A stretch of DNA of 64,000 bases from assembly GCA_040390065.1 (NCBI GenBank), contig JAZJZE010000005.1, positions 385,521 through 449,520 of the forward strand, written 5' to 3'. Of this stretch, positions 20,400 through 34,320 are shown piece by piece. A program made the position numbers and the translations under genes. The stretch's first letter is position 1; every line of letters starts with the position of its first letter. The stretch comes from a bacterium (GTDB lineage Archaea > Thermoplasmatota > E2 > JACPAO01 > JAHFTW01). The notes under the pieces are model-generated. The model searched no databases. It saw nothing but the letters and a program-made list of their open reading frames with translations, and was not told the origin of the DNA.

Positions 20400-21365
20400 A
20401 TGCGGGCGGCCCTTGGTAGCATCCTGGTGGCCGTTGCCGTCTCCGCCCTTCTGGTTTCCTCTTTCCCCGTTGCAGGCCGCTCCCAAAATGAACTCCTAAC
20501 CGCCGTCGGCCAGCTTGGCGGAAGCAATCAAGCCTCATACCTGGCGTCGTTTCCAACCGTCGCGGTCATCAAGACCAATTTGGAGGCCAGGCTCCAGGTT
20601 CCCAACATGCCCCTTGCCGACCAGCAGCAGTTGGATGCCCTCCTGGTGCTAGCATCCAATCATGCTCAGGCATGGACTAACTTGCAGGGCATTGGACAGG
20701 GTGCCGGGCATGACCAACTCGTTGGCCTGCAGGGTGTGCTGGCTGCGGCCAAGGCCTTGAAATCCGAGTTGCAGACCAGCACTGCCGAGCCGGACACGGT
20801 GGACCTGTTGCTCCTGGCGACGCTGGACCTGCTCCGCTCCACGGGGGACATGGCCCGCAGCGCGGCCCAATCAACGGTCTCCGTCCCTACTGCGGATCGT
20901 CTAGCGTTTTTCCAGGTGGCAATTGAAGGTTACCAAGAGGCGGGGCAAGGTTCTAACGCCGCGGCAATGCAACGCGAATTTGATGGAATGTCGCGGACCT
21001 ATACTGCCGACATGGAGGCTGCTGACAACGCCATCCGCGCAGCTGAAACCGCTCGCGATGAACCCATTGCTTGGTTTGTGCCTTTAATCAGCCAATACGG
21101 TGGCATGAGGGCTGCCGTGTCCGACTTGCAAGCATCAGGGGCGAAACTCCAGGCGCACGGGGAAACCCAGCGATCCGCGCAGGCCCAGCAAGATTTGACC
21201 GGCTTGCAAGCCCACCTCGCACAGGCCCAACGGCAGCTGTTGCAGTCGTTGGCCGTCTACCTCGCAATTTCCCTCGTTGTTTGTGCTTGGGGCACGCGGG
21301 CAACCTACAGGTGGCAAAGCGACGTTCGAACTGCAAGCCTGGGAAGCGGCATTCCGGGGACGTGA
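20400..21365 (+). CDS. Exported helical protein with C-terminal membrane anchor
   Basis: N-terminal hydrophobic signal, Ala/Gln-rich helices, C-terminal TM (LAVYLAISLVVCAW); TTTAT at 20369-73. Confidence 0.7.
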   Translation: MRAALGSILVAVAVSALLVSSFPVAGRSQNELLTAVGQLGGSNQASYLASFPTVAVIKTNLEARLQVPNMPLADQQQLDALLVLASNHAQAWTNLQGIGQGAGHDQLVGLQGVLAAAKALKSELQTSTAEPDTVDLLLLATLDLLRSTGDMARSAAQSTVSVPTADRLAFFQVAIEGYQEAGQGSNAAAMQREFDGMSRTYTADMEAADNAIRAAETARDEPIAWFVPLISQYGGMRAAVSDLQASGAKLQAHGETQRSAQAQQDLTGLQAHLAQAQRQLLQSLAVYLAISLVVCAWGTRATYRWQSDVRTASLGSGIPGT

Positions 21366-21368
21366 CCT

Positions 21369-23513
21369 TTGCGCGTTGCCACCGTCCTTCTAGTCCTTCT
21401 TTTCGCCGCCGCGCTTCCGCCCTCGAGCCAGGCCCAACCGCCGCCGGCGCCTGACATTGTGCTCACGACGTCCTCTGGAACGTCATCCCTAGCGCTGGAC
21501 ACACGCTATTCAGCCACGGACTCGGCGACTGCCTATGTTACGGTGAATGTTCGCAACCAAGGAACCGCGTCGGGAACCGCCACGCCGGCGGCGGCTGCGA
21601 GTCTTTCCCTCCCGTCCGGGCTCACGGCCAACTGTAGCAGTTGTTCTACAGCTACTGTAAGTGCCGGGTCCTCGACTTCGTGGACTTACCAGTTCACCGC
21701 TAGCGCTTCCGATTCTGTGACGCCCGCCAGCGGCGCGGTGAGCATCCCTATTTCGGTTGCGGCGGGCACAATCACGTACACTGCGAACTTGGCCGTGACC
21801 CGCCAAGACGCCGGCCGGCTTTCTGCCCAGGTTACGCCCGCGGTCTACACTCTGCCTTGTCCAGGAAGCACGACTGGCTCGTCCACCTACATCACAGTCC
21901 AACTGACCAATGGCGGGGCCACGGCCGTGTCGCTGTTCTCCAATCCCACTTTGACCCAGACGACGGCGTCCGGGGTGACAATTTCGCTTTCCTCGCCAGG
22001 CAGTTCGTCAATTGGCGCGAATGGCGGCGCAACCTCTCTCCAATATCGAGTCGACATCAGTTCTGACTTTGCCTCGCGCAATTCCGGCGTTCAGCTTTCG
22101 GGTACAGCTGGGCTCCAAATCTCGTATTCCACGACGCGAACCCGACCCGACGTCTCGGCCAGTCTTCCCTTTACGATCACCATCCCAATCCAAGTGTCGT
22201 TCCTGGACAACGCAGGATTTGTTCAGACCGGTTCGGCGCTGAGCCACGACTTTGGGAATGTCGAAATGCAACGCGCTGCATCCCAGTCGGCGCAATTCCG
22301 CGAGTCCTGTGGATACCGCGCGATCTCCTTGTCCGCCGATGATCTGGCGCACAACTCGTTTGCGGTGGCGCCGGCTGCAACTACAATCTTGGGTGGCGGA
22401 AGCGCCACCATGGATTTCGGGGTCCTTTTCACCCCGGGGGGCGGGGCCAGCGTTTGCAAGGCCGAGAACTGGTCCTATCGCGTCGTCGGCTCCACCGCAG
22501 GTTCGCAGCAGTACACGCAGCTCTTCGAATTCAGAGCCCAGCCATCCTTCCAGGATCTGACGGCATACAAGGCCGAATTGGAGACGGCGGCTTCTGGCAT
22601 CGAAGGATACGATTCCTCCCTGCGCAATCACCTTCTCGCTCTTCGTAACGACGCGGACAGTCACACGCAGGGCGGCAGCGGATGCAGTGACGTGCAAGGT
22701 GAAACCGCTTTGCTGGTCGGAGTATTGCAACCCCTCGCCTATGCAACGCGAACCCTGAACGATGCCCAGGGTAAGGTTGCCGCATCCGACTTTGCAGGGG
22801 CCAGCACGGCCTTGCTGGGGGGGGCTGCGGCGACGCGAGCCATTAGGAACCAATGTTCCAAGATTGTCCAACTGGCTGATGCCGCGTCAGATTGCAAGGC
22901 GGCTACCGACGCTCTGACACTGCACTGGACTGCCCTTGCAAATCAGGCGCGTGACAACTTCAAGGCACAGTTGGGGCCAGGAGCAAATCAACAAACCTTG
23001 CTCGATGCCCATGCTGGGCTCGGCCTCATCTATAGGGCATTAAGCCAGCCAGAACAGGCCAGGGAGGAAGACCAGCTGGCGGAGTCCTCGAGTCAGCGCA
23101 TTCAAGAATTGCGCAGCCAAGCAACAGAAGAGTTGGACCAGGCGACAGGGACGCCGACGAATCCCTGGCTTTTTGCTCACATCGGAGACACCTCAGTTGC
23201 TTGGAATCCCCTGGGCTATGGCGCGTTGCGTGAATCGCGTGCGTCCACGGAGGCGCATTACGTTGCGGCAATGGACGCGTACAAGGCGGCCGGTGATACT
23301 CGGTCCGCCCAAGAAACGGAGCAAACCCTTGCAGCAATGCAGGCGACGTACGGCCGCGCTCAACTGGCTAGCCAGATTGTCCTTGGCATGTGGATCTTGT
23401 TGTTCCTGCTTATCGGCGTCCATGTATGCATCCAGACCATTGGCTTCGCCAATGACCAAAAGCGAATTGCCCTCGGGTTCACGTTGTTCAACTCACCAAA
23501 GGGAGGAAGGTAA
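21369..23513 (+). CDS. Large surface protein: Ser/Thr-rich Ig-like repeats, helical stalk, C-terminal TM
   Basis: Signal peptide; beta-rich repeats (VTVNVRNQG, ITVQLTNGG); helical region; TM IVLGMWILLFLLIGVHV. Confidence 0.75.
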   Translation: MRVATVLLVLLFAAALPPSSQAQPPPAPDIVLTTSSGTSSLALDTRYSATDSATAYVTVNVRNQGTASGTATPAAAASLSLPSGLTANCSSCSTATVSAGSSTSWTYQFTASASDSVTPASGAVSIPISVAAGTITYTANLAVTRQDAGRLSAQVTPAVYTLPCPGSTTGSSTYITVQLTNGGATAVSLFSNPTLTQTTASGVTISLSSPGSSSIGANGGATSLQYRVDISSDFASRNSGVQLSGTAGLQISYSTTRTRPDVSASLPFTITIPIQVSFLDNAGFVQTGSALSHDFGNVEMQRAASQSAQFRESCGYRAISLSADDLAHNSFAVAPAATTILGGGSATMDFGVLFTPGGGASVCKAENWSYRVVGSTAGSQQYTQLFEFRAQPSFQDLTAYKAELETAASGIEGYDSSLRNHLLALRNDADSHTQGGSGCSDVQGETALLVGVLQPLAYATRTLNDAQGKVAASDFAGASTALLGGAAATRAIRNQCSKIVQLADAASDCKAATDALTLHWTALANQARDNFKAQLGPGANQQTLLDAHAGLGLIYRALSQPEQAREEDQLAESSSQRIQELRSQATEELDQATGTPTNPWLFAHIGDTSVAWNPLGYGALRESRASTEAHYVAAMDAYKAAGDTRSAQETEQTLAAMQATYGRAQLASQIVLGMWILLFLLIGVHVCIQTIGFANDQKRIALGFTLFNSPKGGR

Positions 23514-33149: not shown

Positions 33150-33731
33150 TCAGCTCCGCAGAGGGTCGGCAACCTTCAGGCGCGAGTTGAGAGCATCGTC
33201 AATCTTCTCCGGCGGGAGGGATTCCAGCTCCGTCATGATGCTCATGAAGTTTGAGTTGTTCATTTCGGAAGAAGCCGAGAGCGCGTCCTGCGATTGCTCG
33301 ATTTGCTCCGCGAGTCCGGCAAGGCGAATGCCAATTTTCTGCTCGCCCTTCGCCAAGTCACGGATGCTGTGACTCAGATCGCTCATCGTTTTCGCACCAA
33401 CAATTTTCTTGAGGGCCTTCAGGGCACCTTCCGTCTCAAGCTCCTGGGCCTCGTAGCTGCTCTTGATGGCCGTGGCCGCGGAATAGACGGCAATCTTGTA
33501 GGAAACTGCACGCTGCGTTGAACGGGCGGAGCTGTAGAACCCCTGGACCTGGGCGGCAATGAGTTGTTTGGAGGAGTTCGGCGCGCCGATGGCCTTCTTC
33601 ATGAGGTCGCGAGCCTTCTTGTCGGCCTGCTCGATTTGACGGGACTTGATGTTGATGTCCGCATTCAAGTCGAAGATCAGGTCATCCAGTTGCTCGATTT
33701 TCTTAGAGGTCTTTTTTCCGAAGAGGCCCAT
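33150..33731 (-). CDS. Snf7/ESCRT-III-like protein
   Basis: 193 aa; amphipathic MGLFGKK start; helical hairpin; C-terminal DDALNSRLK (MIM1-like); adjacent to the Vps4-like gene. Confidence 0.68.
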   Translation of the reverse strand: MGLFGKKTSKKIEQLDDLIFDLNADINIKSRQIEQADKKARDLMKKAIGAPNSSKQLIAAQVQGFYSSARSTQRAVSYKIAVYSAATAIKSSYEAQELETEGALKALKKIVGAKTMSDLSHSIRDLAKGEQKIGIRLAGLAEQIEQSQDALSASSEMNNSNFMSIMTELESLPPEKIDDALNSRLKVADPLRS

Positions 33732-33735
33732 GTAG

Positions 33736-34320
33736 TCACTCCCGTCCCTGTGGCTTTGTCTTGGTAGATTTGTTGGTGGCTGGCTCTTCCGCCTTCTTCG
33801 TCGGCGCGGGCGCCGAGTTGATCATGCGCTCTTCCTCCGACAGTTCCCCGGAACCAGCTCCAGTCCCCTCAGAAAGTCGGCCGCGACGCTGCTCCGTCTG
33901 TGCCCGGGCCTTCTCCACTTCCTTCTGGCGGCCCTCGAGAGCCTTGCCAAGCTCGTGATCAGACATTTTTCCAGTTACCTTGTCGAGTCGCTTCGCACCG
34001 CGCACCGCCTCGGTCCCGCGGCGCTGCTCAATGAGAGCAGTCACGGTTTCTTGCTGGGCCAACAAAGCATCGAAATCCTGCTGGAGGCGTTCAATTTGGG
34101 GGCGCAGTTGGCGTGCCTTGCTCGCTCGCAAGCGAACGTCGTTGTCCGTTTCCTCGGGGCGTCGACCGGAAAGCAATGCATCGTACTGCGCTCGGAGCTG
34201 CTTGAGTTGGGCGTTCGTACCGTCCGCCCTTACGCCGAGCCGCGTTTCCTCGTCCGCTAGCTTGTCAAGCGACAATTTGTCCAACTTTTTCGAAGGATCT
34301 GAGCGGCCAAATGGAATCAT
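33736..34320 (-). CDS. Snf7/ESCRT-III-like coiled-coil protein
   Basis: 194 aa; MIPFGR start, charged helical hairpin, disordered tail; first gene of the operon. Confidence 0.55.
   Translation of the reverse strand: MIPFGRSDPSKKLDKLSLDKLADEETRLGVRADGTNAQLKQLRAQYDALLSGRRPEETDNDVRLRASKARQLRPQIERLQQDFDALLAQQETVTALIEQRRGTEAVRGAKRLDKVTGKMSDHELGKALEGRQKEVEKARAQTEQRRGRLSEGTGAGSGELSEEERMINSAPAPTKKAEEPATNKSTKTKPQGRE

Follow-up and report, generated by a model that had tools for sequence, protein, structure and literature searches.

An operon joining a Vps4-like ATPase gene to two divergent tubulin-family genes in a thermoplasmatal archaeon: a candidate composite system for membrane remodelling

An operon in which the gene for a Vps4-like ATPase is coupled to the genes of two divergent tubulin-family proteins is described here from the genome of an uncultured archaeon of the phylum Thermoplasmatota. 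The window, by which we mean the whole stretch of DNA that was analysed, comprises 64,000 nucleotides (nt) (NCBI GenBank assembly GCA_040390065.1, contig JAZJZE010000005.1, positions 385,521 to 449,520 of the forward strand), and the locus lies between its positions 20400 and 34320. [quoted passage not shown] In our view, the chances are slightly better than even that the locus encodes one membrane-remodelling or sorting apparatus made of two modules, a tubulin-pair module and a module of ESCRT type. The former would comprise the tubulin-family proteins J and F, the membrane proteins I, G and E, and H, A and B as exported proteins with a C-terminal anchor, and the latter would comprise the MIT-like, Vps4-type ATPase K and the ESCRT-III-like protein L, probably together with M and C. 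The genes of the locus are listed below, with lengths in amino acids (aa), transmembrane abbreviated as TM, and all positions being those of the window.

M, 33736-34320, minus strand: 194 aa, basic and helical, first gene of the operon; candidate ESCRT-III-like subunit
L, 33150-33731, minus strand: 193 aa, ESCRT-III-like, the best supported of the three candidates
K, 31937-33142, minus strand: 401 aa, Vps4-like ATPase; three helices at the N-terminus, then a disordered linker, a single AAA domain and a helix at the C-terminus
J (tub1), 30666-31940, minus strand: 424 aa, putative tubulin-family GTPase
I, 30379-30669, minus strand: 96 aa, two TM segments
H, 29069-30382, minus strand: 437 aa, predicted to be exported, C-terminal TM anchor
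G, 27613-29064, minus strand: 483 aa, two N-terminal TM segments, then a long helical part predicted to be cytoplasmic
F (tub2), 26352-27620, minus strand: 422 aa, putative divergent tubulin-family GTPase
E, 24541-26352, minus strand: 603 aa, membrane protein with TM segments at 5-23, 148-166 and possibly 574-592
D, 24090-24533, minus strand: 147 aa, nuclease fold and a single TM segment; ends the operon
A, 20400-21365, plus strand: 321 aa, predicted to be exported, C-terminal anchor
B, 21369-23513, plus strand: 714 aa, predicted to be exported, Ser/Thr/Ala-rich, C-terminal anchor
C, 23514-24056, plus strand: 180 aa, helical; candidate third ESCRT-III-like subunit

The minus-strand operon M-L-K-J-I-H-G-F-E-D consists of ten co-directional genes (24090-34320) and is convergent with the plus-strand genes A-B-C (20400-24056), in a region that is gene-dense on both strands. 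The coordinates of the open reading frames (ORFs) bear out the two convergent operons, the gene order and the strands given in an earlier note, which was made by a model from the letters of this DNA and a list of its ORFs. From M to D the junctions measure +4, +7, -4, -4, -4, +4, -8, -1 and +7 nt; the packing within 7 nt claimed for the first nine genes is correct as far as the gaps are concerned, but one overlap (G/F) amounts to 8 nt. The stop codon of K and the start codon of J share the letters ATGA (a 4-nt overlap), the plus-strand gaps are 3 nt (A/B) and 0 nt (B/C), and the stop codons of C and D lie 33 nt apart. The earlier placing of a Vps4-like AAA ATPase, with an N-terminus that is MIT-like, and of two tubulin genes in one operon with membrane and exported proteins is upheld, and the operon is translationally coupled. 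Start codons were picked by alignment to relatives or homology. A hydropathy scan, from which all TM topologies were taken, detected no TM segment in M, L, K, J, F or C, and in each of A, B and H it detected an N-terminal signal or TM segment as well as a C-terminal TM segment. Protein D, which follows the nine genes and had been described as a TM nuclease, does match the Pfam family Endonuc_Holl (1.1e-18) and carries one TM segment. Pfam matches above noise were found for none of A, B, E, G, H, I, M, L and C, nor NCBIfam matches for M, L and C; for H and E, which had been called 'Ig-like' and 'prealbumin-like', the TM topology stands, and neither label has a Pfam match.

J is matched by the Pfam Tubulin model at 1.6e-14 (55.1 bits, cut-off 33), and F by the same model at 6.2e-7 and 30.3 bits, just below the cut-off of 33 (32.5 bits in a whole-genome search, and 33.7 with neighbours). 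The G-boxes read GGGTGCG in J and GGGTGNG in F, the T1 loop of tub1 reads GxGQxG, and residues G184-G190 together with two aspartates of the T7 region (D305 and D308, ORF numbering) are invariant across five sequences. The best matches of the tub1 profile in the Protein Data Bank (PDB) are 4b46, 4b45 and 3zid (best 6.8e-14), which we take to be CetZ structures, whereas BtubA/B and Atub are weakly similar in sequence (E 2e-5 to 4e-3). In a quick tree of 38 rows with long branches, J falls into a tub1 clade with a support of 99 and nine rows (J, G025, G056, four haloarchaea, ANME-2 and Nanoarchaeia), and F into a tub2 clade with a support of 99 and six rows (F, G056 and four haloarchaea). Both proteins are excluded from the FtsZ clade (support 100, six rows) and from the CetZ clade (support 99, ten rows), an outcome that bears on the earlier suggestion to place the two GTPases among FtsZ, CetZ and tubulin. 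Judged from their sequences, J and F are divergent tubulin-family proteins, neither FtsZ nor CetZ. tub1 resembles the cell-shape tubulins of the CetZ type in its GxGQxG T1 loop and has among them its presumed nearest solved structures, but J and F form clades of their own. A survey of CetZ proteins (PMC9856176) files such proteins as 'non-canonical TSF', in its accessible text without neighbourhood analysis. FtsZl1 and FtsZl2 (Makarova & Koonin 2010, PMC2875224) were considered as candidates and rejected, since the operons described in the accessible text of that work are built around vWA proteins and GTPases, neither of which occurs at this locus.

The host genome possesses four tubulin-family genes, namely J, F and two FtsZ-like genes on other contigs (E 4.7e-47 and 8.9e-44). 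The separate ftsZ genes for which the earlier note had proposed a check are therefore present as two canonical copies elsewhere, and a role of the locus outside division is plausible; because the host keeps both FtsZ1 and FtsZ2, we regard the apparatus as accessory and not as a divisome. A scan with the tub1 alignment, taking one genome per species, recovered 12 loci. Two of them, at 57-58% identity, belong to uncultured metagenome-assembled genomes (MAGs); Haloarcula rubra, Halorubellus litoreus, Halobiforma haloterrestris, Haloquadratum walsbyi J07HQW1, Haloarcula sediminis and Halobaculum gomorrense follow at 33-38%, and other loci come from records labelled Nanoarchaeia, ANME-2 and Methanoperedens. 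The scan of genome contigs with the single protein J gave no match. Within the order, the tub1 profile matches three of 38 genomes and none of 31 other members of the family, and the tub1 query matches four of 401 genomes in a sample of the phylum. The window, G056 and six haloarchaea each have a pair of tub1 and tub2, and the ANME-2 and Nanoarchaeia records have a tub1-like gene adjacent to a second tubulin gene; such an association resembles the paired tubulins (alpha/beta tubulin, BtubA/B and the Asgard AtubA/B), in that two divergent paralogs are kept together across distant hosts. In the Nanoarchaeia record (L026) and the ANME-2 record (L027), the second tubulin-family gene adjoining the tub1-like gene carries GGGTGNG. 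The tubulins of these two records are almost identical to each other (end branches 0.03-0.13), which suggests a very recent transfer or a binning error.

The ATPase K matches the Pfam family AAA (E 3.3e-34) with a single AAA domain at residues 169-299 of a 411-aa ORF. Its AlphaFold2 (AF2) model, built from a shallow alignment of 13 sequences (predicted local distance difference test score, pLDDT, 81.3), shows N-terminal helices at 3-25, 30-50 and 54-75 with a pLDDT of about 80-96, a linker at 80-102 with a pLDDT below 50, one AAA fold and a C-terminal helix at 382-397. The Pfam MIT model gave no match to K at E <= 0.1. A tree of 51 AAA domains, obtained by a quick method and with long branches, places K in a clade of 31 single-AAA proteins (support 99), which includes eight archaeal ATPases bearing Vps4_C, and Cdc48 D1, Cdc48 D2 and the PAN-like protein of the host genome fall apart from this clade, in keeping with the Vps4-like nature that had been attributed to K. 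By its sequence and its predicted structure, K is a Vps4-like member of the meiotic-clade ATPases, with an N-terminal domain that is MIT-like in shape. Close relatives are few in a collection of 5.8 billion proteins (P0002 and P0003 at 73-74% identity, and P0004 at 49%); beyond them come many single-AAA proteins of about 400 aa at 35-45% identity, many of which bear Pfam Vps4_C. An ortholog of K was found in none of 40 relative genomes, where the best match (38-42% identity) covers the AAA domain only and lies within Cdc48-like ORFs of about 725-760 aa. Among 401 genomes of the phylum, the search with K gave matches in eight, namely the window's own, G056 and six genomes of the family f38. With P0041 as the query, 80 loci with Vps4-like genes were recovered from metagenome contigs, and their ORFs gave no match at E <= 1e-3 to the other 12 proteins of the locus or to ten G056 proteins.

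Directly upstream of K, at a distance of 7 nt, lies L. The canonical layout of ESCRT-III proteins consists of a long hairpin of helices alpha1 and alpha2, shorter helices alpha3 to alpha5 and a C-terminal helix. The AF2 model of L, built from a shallow alignment of seven sequences (pLDDT 81.8, predicted TM-score 0.71), contains two long helices at 3-47 and 52-94, followed by helices at 100-111, 116-153, 159-170 and 174-185, and the predicted topology fits this layout. When the L family was compared by hhalign with family U, which is encoded by the gene directly upstream of Vps4 in six f38 genomes, thin profiles on both sides gave a Prob of 85.5 and an E of 5.7e-6 over 169 columns, so that the homology spans the whole of L. 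According to the accessible text of Makarova et al. (2024, mBio, PMC10936438), the position directly upstream of Vps4 is that of ESCRT-III in archaeal ESCRT loci. L holds this position and is homologous to the protein found there in other archaea, and it is therefore considered to be ESCRT-III-like; it is the best supported of the three candidates and the only one with positive evidence, which comes from sequence comparison and a predicted structure. The earlier note had regarded L, M and C alike as Snf7-like, a view that we retain for L on account of its helix topology and its hhalign match to U, M and C being candidates; family models detect none of the three.

The L family is rare, with ten matches at E <= 1e-3, five at E <= 1e-10 and four at E <= 1e-30 among 1.84 billion representatives; a search with the family profile gave eight proteins, and the L alignment retrieved nothing from metagenome contigs. 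M has a weak positional homolog in G056 (phmmer E 4.5e-4), and its sole match in the PDB search is Srn2/Vps37 (E 0.089). C has three homologs at 67-86% identity, one of which (P0138, 79% identity) bears the automatic JGI name 'division protein CdvB (Snf7/Vps24/ESCRT-III family)', the sole hint for C. The ends of L and C contain [DE]xxLxxRL-like stretches, candidate counterparts of the C-terminal motif by which ESCRT-III proteins bind MIT domains. In the ESM Atlas, the top matches of L and M were unnamed clusters, and a cluster that is 16% Snf7 appeared at ranks 20 and 29 (for M at rank 29, score 0.89), which serves as a lead only. No likeness was detected between M or C and the families L, U, D1, D2 and S, the last being a distinct family of about 200 aa, and NCBIfam searches with the families U, D1, D2 and others gave nothing relevant. 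By size, helical character and position, M and C are candidate ESCRT-III-like subunits.

The main rival explanation concerns the substrate of K. It would sever or remodel tubulin filaments in the manner of katanin, spastin or fidgetin, and L, M and C would be adaptors or regulators of tub1/tub2 filaments. Among the ten best Foldseek matches of the K model in the PDB, four are Vps4, two FIGNL1, one katanin and one spastin, with two p97/CDC48 entries interleaved, and the best E values belong to FIGNL1 (1.9e-20) and katanin (2.5e-20), both ahead of Vps4; the overlap of the K stop with the tub1 start and the lack of an ESCRT-III identity for L, M and C in searches with family models point the same way. 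Yet K clusters with archaeal ATPases that bear Vps4_C, and the homolog of L encoded upstream of Vps4 belongs to operons that have no tubulin gene among the ORFs examined. Severing enzymes grip acidic C-terminal tails, and J and F end without such tails. On balance, we consider this explanation unlikely.

The combination seen in the window recurs in G056, a genome of the same phylum but of a different family. Its operon encodes, in order, a 211-aa protein, L', K', tub1', two membrane proteins, tub2' and a membrane protein; after it come two convergent genes for anchored proteins and one for a Ser/Thr kinase. Identities to the window proteins are 38% for L', 34-36% for K', 33-37% for tub1' and 32% for tub2', and its five unassigned proteins agree in TM pattern, place for place, with H, G, E, B and A; the 612-aa protein after tub2 corresponds to E and a 785-aa protein to B, each with the same topology. 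The gene order is thus conserved in another genome, as the earlier note had wished to see, and the presence of a MIT-like Vps4 and of L and M inside a tubulin operon is a form common to the window and this one other genome. Contigs of equal size (16809 and 10914 bp) suggest that further homologs of L may share contigs with homologs of K. The nuclease D, which in the note follows the nine genes, does not belong to the conserved part of the system, being missing from G025, G056 and the haloarchaeal loci; paralogs of D at the DNA level exist elsewhere in congeneric genomes.

The genomes of the family f38 provide the nearest comparison for the ESCRT side alone. Their Vps4 exceeds the Vps4_C cut-off (23.1 versus 21.3 bits) and is encoded in an operon with genes of about 200 aa. 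In two of these loci (L120 4156-8352 and L122 3904-8127), the operon has two Vps4-like ATPases (400 aa and 378-396 aa) with two genes of about 200 aa between them, preceded by an Hsp14-like small heat-shock gene. These f38 operons (L120-L122) resemble the window as euryarchaeal Vps4/ESCRT-III operons without CdvA, since K belongs to the same clade (support 99) and L is homologous to the 200-aa protein encoded upstream; they differ from it in having no tubulin gene among the ORFs examined and in possessing a second Vps4-like ATPase. Vps4/ESCRT-III operons without CdvA have been described as the 'Main' and 'Thermoplasmata' clades in the accessible text of PMC10936438. The crenarchaeal CdvA/CdvB/CdvC system likewise pairs a Vps4-type ATPase with small helical proteins; the differences are that K scores 147 bits against a CdvC cut-off of 650 and that FtsZ1 and FtsZ2 are present in the window's host. 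A CdvA candidate did not turn up at the locus, where no model search for CdvA was made.

A sister system exists in haloarchaea, Haloquadratum and Haloarcula among them, and part of it has been published. The very derived 'Halo_adaptin' ESCRT-like system of Makarova et al. (2024), as set out in the accessible text of PMC10936438, comprises a Vps4-like ATPase that lacks MIT and has a VAT-N-like domain, accompanied by PspA-like, winged-helix (wH) and PQQ/WD40 'adaptin-like' proteins. Its locus includes a CetZ-like tubulin, in the words of that text 'a protein related to CetZ', as well as membrane and Ig-like proteins; its ESCRT-III candidate is only weakly PspA-like, and the role proposed for it is vesicle formation and cargo sorting. 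In Haloquadratum walsbyi we find a second operon convergent with the tubulin operon, whose products are two unassigned proteins, a protein of 314 aa, an AAA ATPase of 571 aa with a weak CDC48_2 match and a PQQ-repeat protein of 861 aa, and which matches the description of 'Halo_adaptin' in the accessible text of PMC10936438. Orthologs of this ATPase (53-73% identity) are present in all five other haloarchaea, and in the three that were checked they lie on the same contig as the tubulins. The whole sister arrangement is annotated on plasmid pHS2 of Halobacterium salinarum R1, where tub1 and tub3 are named 'cell division protein FtsZ' and tub2 (L152 14679-15902) 'hypothetical protein'; F and the pHS2 tub2 share 37% identity (E 6e-87). 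tub3 is a third, longer tubulin-family gene situated upstream in haloarchaeal loci (L023 6335-8182, L152 7071-8693, and copies in L140, L142 and L144), with products of 540-615 aa that form a clade of their own (support 99); a pattern search found the G-box GGGTGxG in none of four copies.

The window and the haloarchaeal system have much in common. The tubulins tub1 (33-38% identity) and tub2 (about 37-42%) are orthologous; homologs of G, I and A occur in the same operon order; a small helical protein precedes an AAA ATPase; and both systems have exported proteins, two convergent operons and hosts that bear FtsZ. The orthologs of J and F lie about 4-5 kb apart in all six haloarchaeal loci, with a G-like protein between them in three (E 3e-9 to 5e-6), four loci have A-like proteins where the tubulin operon ends (E 1.7e-9 to 2.5e-7 with a profile of the window and G025 proteins), and an I-like ORF follows tub1 in one (E 8.2e-5). 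The ATPase modules are different. The window has a 401-aa ATPase of the MIT-like, Vps4-like kind with a helical N-terminus, whereas that of H. walsbyi is of the VAT-N type, shares only 29% identity with K (E 1.1e-11) and sits on a long branch outside the Vps4-like clade. The ESCRT-type module (M, L and K) heads the tubulin operon in the window, whereas the Halo_adaptin ATPase module lies in the convergent operon. The window has no third tubulin, whereas the haloarchaeal loci have three tubulin-family genes, against the one named in the accessible text of PMC10936438. PQQ/WD40 or PspA-like proteins were not found at the window locus, and no wH protein turned up there, wH folds not having been searched for. 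The best match to the Halo_adaptin-type ATPase in the window's genome is a Cdc48-like ORF (E 1.7e-19), and no such ATPase was found in it. Calculated isoelectric points are 8.4-10.1 for seven of the ten operon proteins of the window (M, L, K, J, H, G and D) and 6.0-6.9 for I, F and E; the 'salt-in' proteomes of haloarchaea are acidic.

The coupling of an ESCRT-like system to a CetZ-like tubulin is therefore already in print, at least as 'Halo_adaptin' in the accessible text of PMC10936438, and the pairing, which the earlier note had thought possibly unreported, is represented in the window by a variant and is not wholly new. What is new is the form with a MIT-like Vps4, in which this ATPase and L and M are fused into the tubulin operon and replace the set of VAT-N ATPase, PspA-like, wH and PQQ proteins. 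This architecture was not found in the literature beyond the papers cited, and the supplementary tables of PMC10936438 may list extra tubulins or MIT-type variants. Two different ATPase modules of ESCRT type are found with the same tubulin module, and this is our principal new ground for a functional association of the two sides.

Several results weigh against the reading of the locus as one apparatus of two modules, and the first of them concerns the independence of its tubulin side. In the genome G025, which is 94% complete, tub1, I, H, E, A and B are present without K, L or tub2 (E 7e-9 for H, 1.2e-18 for E and 1e-27 for B), so that the tubulin side can exist without the ESCRT side; G029 also carries tub1. 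For K, the Pfam Vps4_C model gives an E of 0.059 and 13.8 bits against a cut-off of 21.3, and the NCBIfam CDC48 model scores 180 bits, above the 147.2 bits of the CdvC model, which has an equivalog cut-off of 650. The tree that unites K with Vps4-like ATPases has, besides its quick method and long branches, no rows of eukaryotic Vps4 or crenarchaeal CdvC, and K and the G056 protein K' stand in different subclades of it and may, for that reason, not be strict orthologs. For L, Foldseek gave no significant match in the PDB (none at E <= 0.001), the best being STAT3 at an E of 0.13; what was recovered of the predicted ESCRT-III likeness is the presence within the top 50 of CdvB2 (ranks 6, 7 and 9, E 0.39-0.45, TM-score about 0.3), CdvB (ranks 13 and 21), IST1 (rank 41) and CHMP1B (ranks 45 and 46), mixed with STAT3, syntaxin-like proteins and designed helical bundles. 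PDB sequence and profile searches with L, L together with U, M and C returned no ESCRT-III chain, and hhalign detected no similarity among L, M and C, nor between any of them and the H. walsbyi PspA-like protein. Finally, the Snf7, CdvB and PspA models of Pfam and NCBIfam gave no match to L, M or C at E <= 0.1, and five relatives of L were likewise without a Snf7, PspA or CdvB match at this threshold. The Pfam Snf7 test is insensitive here, because PF03357 remained below its cut-off in all 14 control genomes, Sulfolobus acidocaldarius included. A six-frame PF03357 search of the host genome at E <= 10 found nothing in this contig, and in five other genomes it found only sub-threshold matches (E 0.01-0.15) in family S, which showed nothing in common with L, M, C or U by hhalign.

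The genome G025 also bears on two further explanations. The two operon parts might stand together by chance, an ESCRT operon having been inserted beside an unrelated tubulin operon with no functional link between them, and the tubulin module without K and L in G025, as well as the f38 Vps4 operons without tubulins, show each part on its own. We find this scarcely credible in view of the 4-nt overlap of K and J within one co-directional operon, the repetition of the arrangement in G056 at only 32-38% identity, and the second type of ESCRT-like module which accompanies the same tubulin module in six haloarchaea. Alternatively, the locus might be a builder of the envelope or surface, in which the tubulin pair positions the insertion or turnover of H, A and B, and K with L and M is only a PspA-like stress or repair unit. 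The three exported, anchored proteins of the conserved module would suit such a role, as would the retention of tub1, I (of which G025 has a homolog), H, E, A and B without the ESCRT part, the glycosylation genes at 36.8-45.2 kb in the same island, and the nearest solved relatives of tub1, 4b46, 4b45 and 3zid, presumably structures of CetZ, a type of protein that acts on cell shape. The tubulin module nevertheless stands together with an ESCRT-type ATPase module in the window, in G056 and in each of the six haloarchaea examined, which argues for joint action and against a bystander repair unit, and J and F lie outside the CetZ clade; a purely envelope-building role is in our opinion improbable. 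In the reduced locus of G025 (L014, G025:C20), a MoxR-type AAA_3 ATPase (9.5e-63) is encoded at 15056-17110, some 3 kb upstream of tub1, in the place that K occupies in the window.

The reading that we prefer, one apparatus built from a tubulin-pair and an ESCRT-type module, may be pictured as a sequence of steps. J and F would bind GTP and polymerise on the cytoplasmic face of the membrane, possibly as a heteropolymer. I, G and E would tether these filaments, which would mark or shape a patch of membrane carrying H, A and B. At this patch L, with or without M and C, would polymerise, and K would remodel or disassemble the L polymer, leading to neck constriction, budding or repair. The conservation of the tethers I, G and E and of the anchored proteins H, A and B points to the membrane and the surface as the site of action. 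All physical interactions, as well as the cellular output, be it vesicles, protrusions or surface patches, are inferred from this context.

The locus lies within a genomic island of about 30 kb. The host genome, a MAG, measures 2.68 Mb, is split into 50 contigs and is 89% complete. The guanine-plus-cytosine (GC) content is 0.58-0.63 over about 16-48 kb of the window and 0.65-0.68 in the flanks. Twelve congeneric genomes match the window at 1-16.3 kb and 46.6-60 kb with 66-85% DNA identity, and inside 16.3-46.6 kb their matches are short patches only (part of D, AAA motifs and a sugar-nucleotide gene). The island assumed in the earlier note is thus supported by its low GC content and its absence from 12 congeners, and its acquisition by transfer is well supported. 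In two congeners (G005 and G006), matches to about 14.1-14.4 kb of the window (14141-14430) come directly after those to about 52.1-53.3 kb (52130-53340), and because of this order the flanks are taken as rearranged relative to congeners and not simply interrupted. The further claim that the apparatus is horizontally mobile is favoured by its sporadic distribution and by the homologous modules on haloarchaeal megaplasmids, five of which carry tub1 homologs, but the usual marks of an element were not detected: there is no tRNA gene in the window, no integrase among 20 island ORFs scanned, and no direct or inverted repeat of at least 13 nt between the island borders that could serve as an att repeat. 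To call the island a mobile element would be conjecture.

These features are also pertinent to an explanation in terms of conflict or of mobile elements, by which the locus would be an anti-virus membrane response, or the egress or transfer device of an integrated element. It sits in a variable region of lower GC content that is missing from 12 congeners and adjoins a RES-domain toxin gene, related modules are found on megaplasmids, and a membrane-anchored nuclease ends the operon. Against this stand the missing integrase, tRNA gene and att repeat, the lack of relatives among IMG/VR viral contigs searched with the tub1 profile and of any match to L among phage records, and the absence of the nuclease D from related loci; we hold such a function to be highly improbable.

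Other genes of the island deserve mention. At its left edge, an ORF of 279 aa with a RES domain (16370-17209, minus strand; Pfam 2.1e-12) is directly preceded by an ORF of 189 aa (17213-17782), and the two may form a toxin-antitoxin module of the RES type. A set of surface-glycan genes at 36833-45169 encodes a nucleotidyl transferase, a UDP-glucose/GDP-mannose dehydrogenase, two group-1 glycosyltransferases, a DegT-type aminotransferase, a GNAT protein and an epimerase, and a kinase-like ORF (39176-40126) lies within this set.

A broader proposal may be derived from the window and its haloarchaeal counterpart, namely that archaea possess a composite machine in which a non-FtsZ, non-CetZ tubulin pair, possibly a heteropolymer, works physically with ESCRT-III and a Vps4-type ATPase, and that this coupling has been assembled at least twice from unrelated ATPase modules, with a MIT-like Vps4 and L in the window and G056, and with a VAT-N ATPase and a PspA-like protein in haloarchaea. 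We put this forward tentatively and consider it possible, with the greater part of our expectation lying elsewhere. The Vps4-type ATPase of the window is far closer to the canonical kind than that of Halo_adaptin, and it shares one operon with its upstream partner and with the same two tubulin lineages. As evidence from context, two ESCRT-type modules tied to one tubulin module speak much more strongly for joint function than either locus alone. The tubulin side itself emerges as a conserved pair, with a third paralog in haloarchaea, that has its own membrane tethers and exported proteins. The full sister system resides on the plasmid pHS2 of the genetically tractable Halobacterium salinarum R1, which makes the question approachable by experiment. 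If the proposal is true, such a machine would be a prokaryotic counterpart of the interplay of microtubules, spastin or katanin, and ESCRT-III at the membrane necks of eukaryotic cells.

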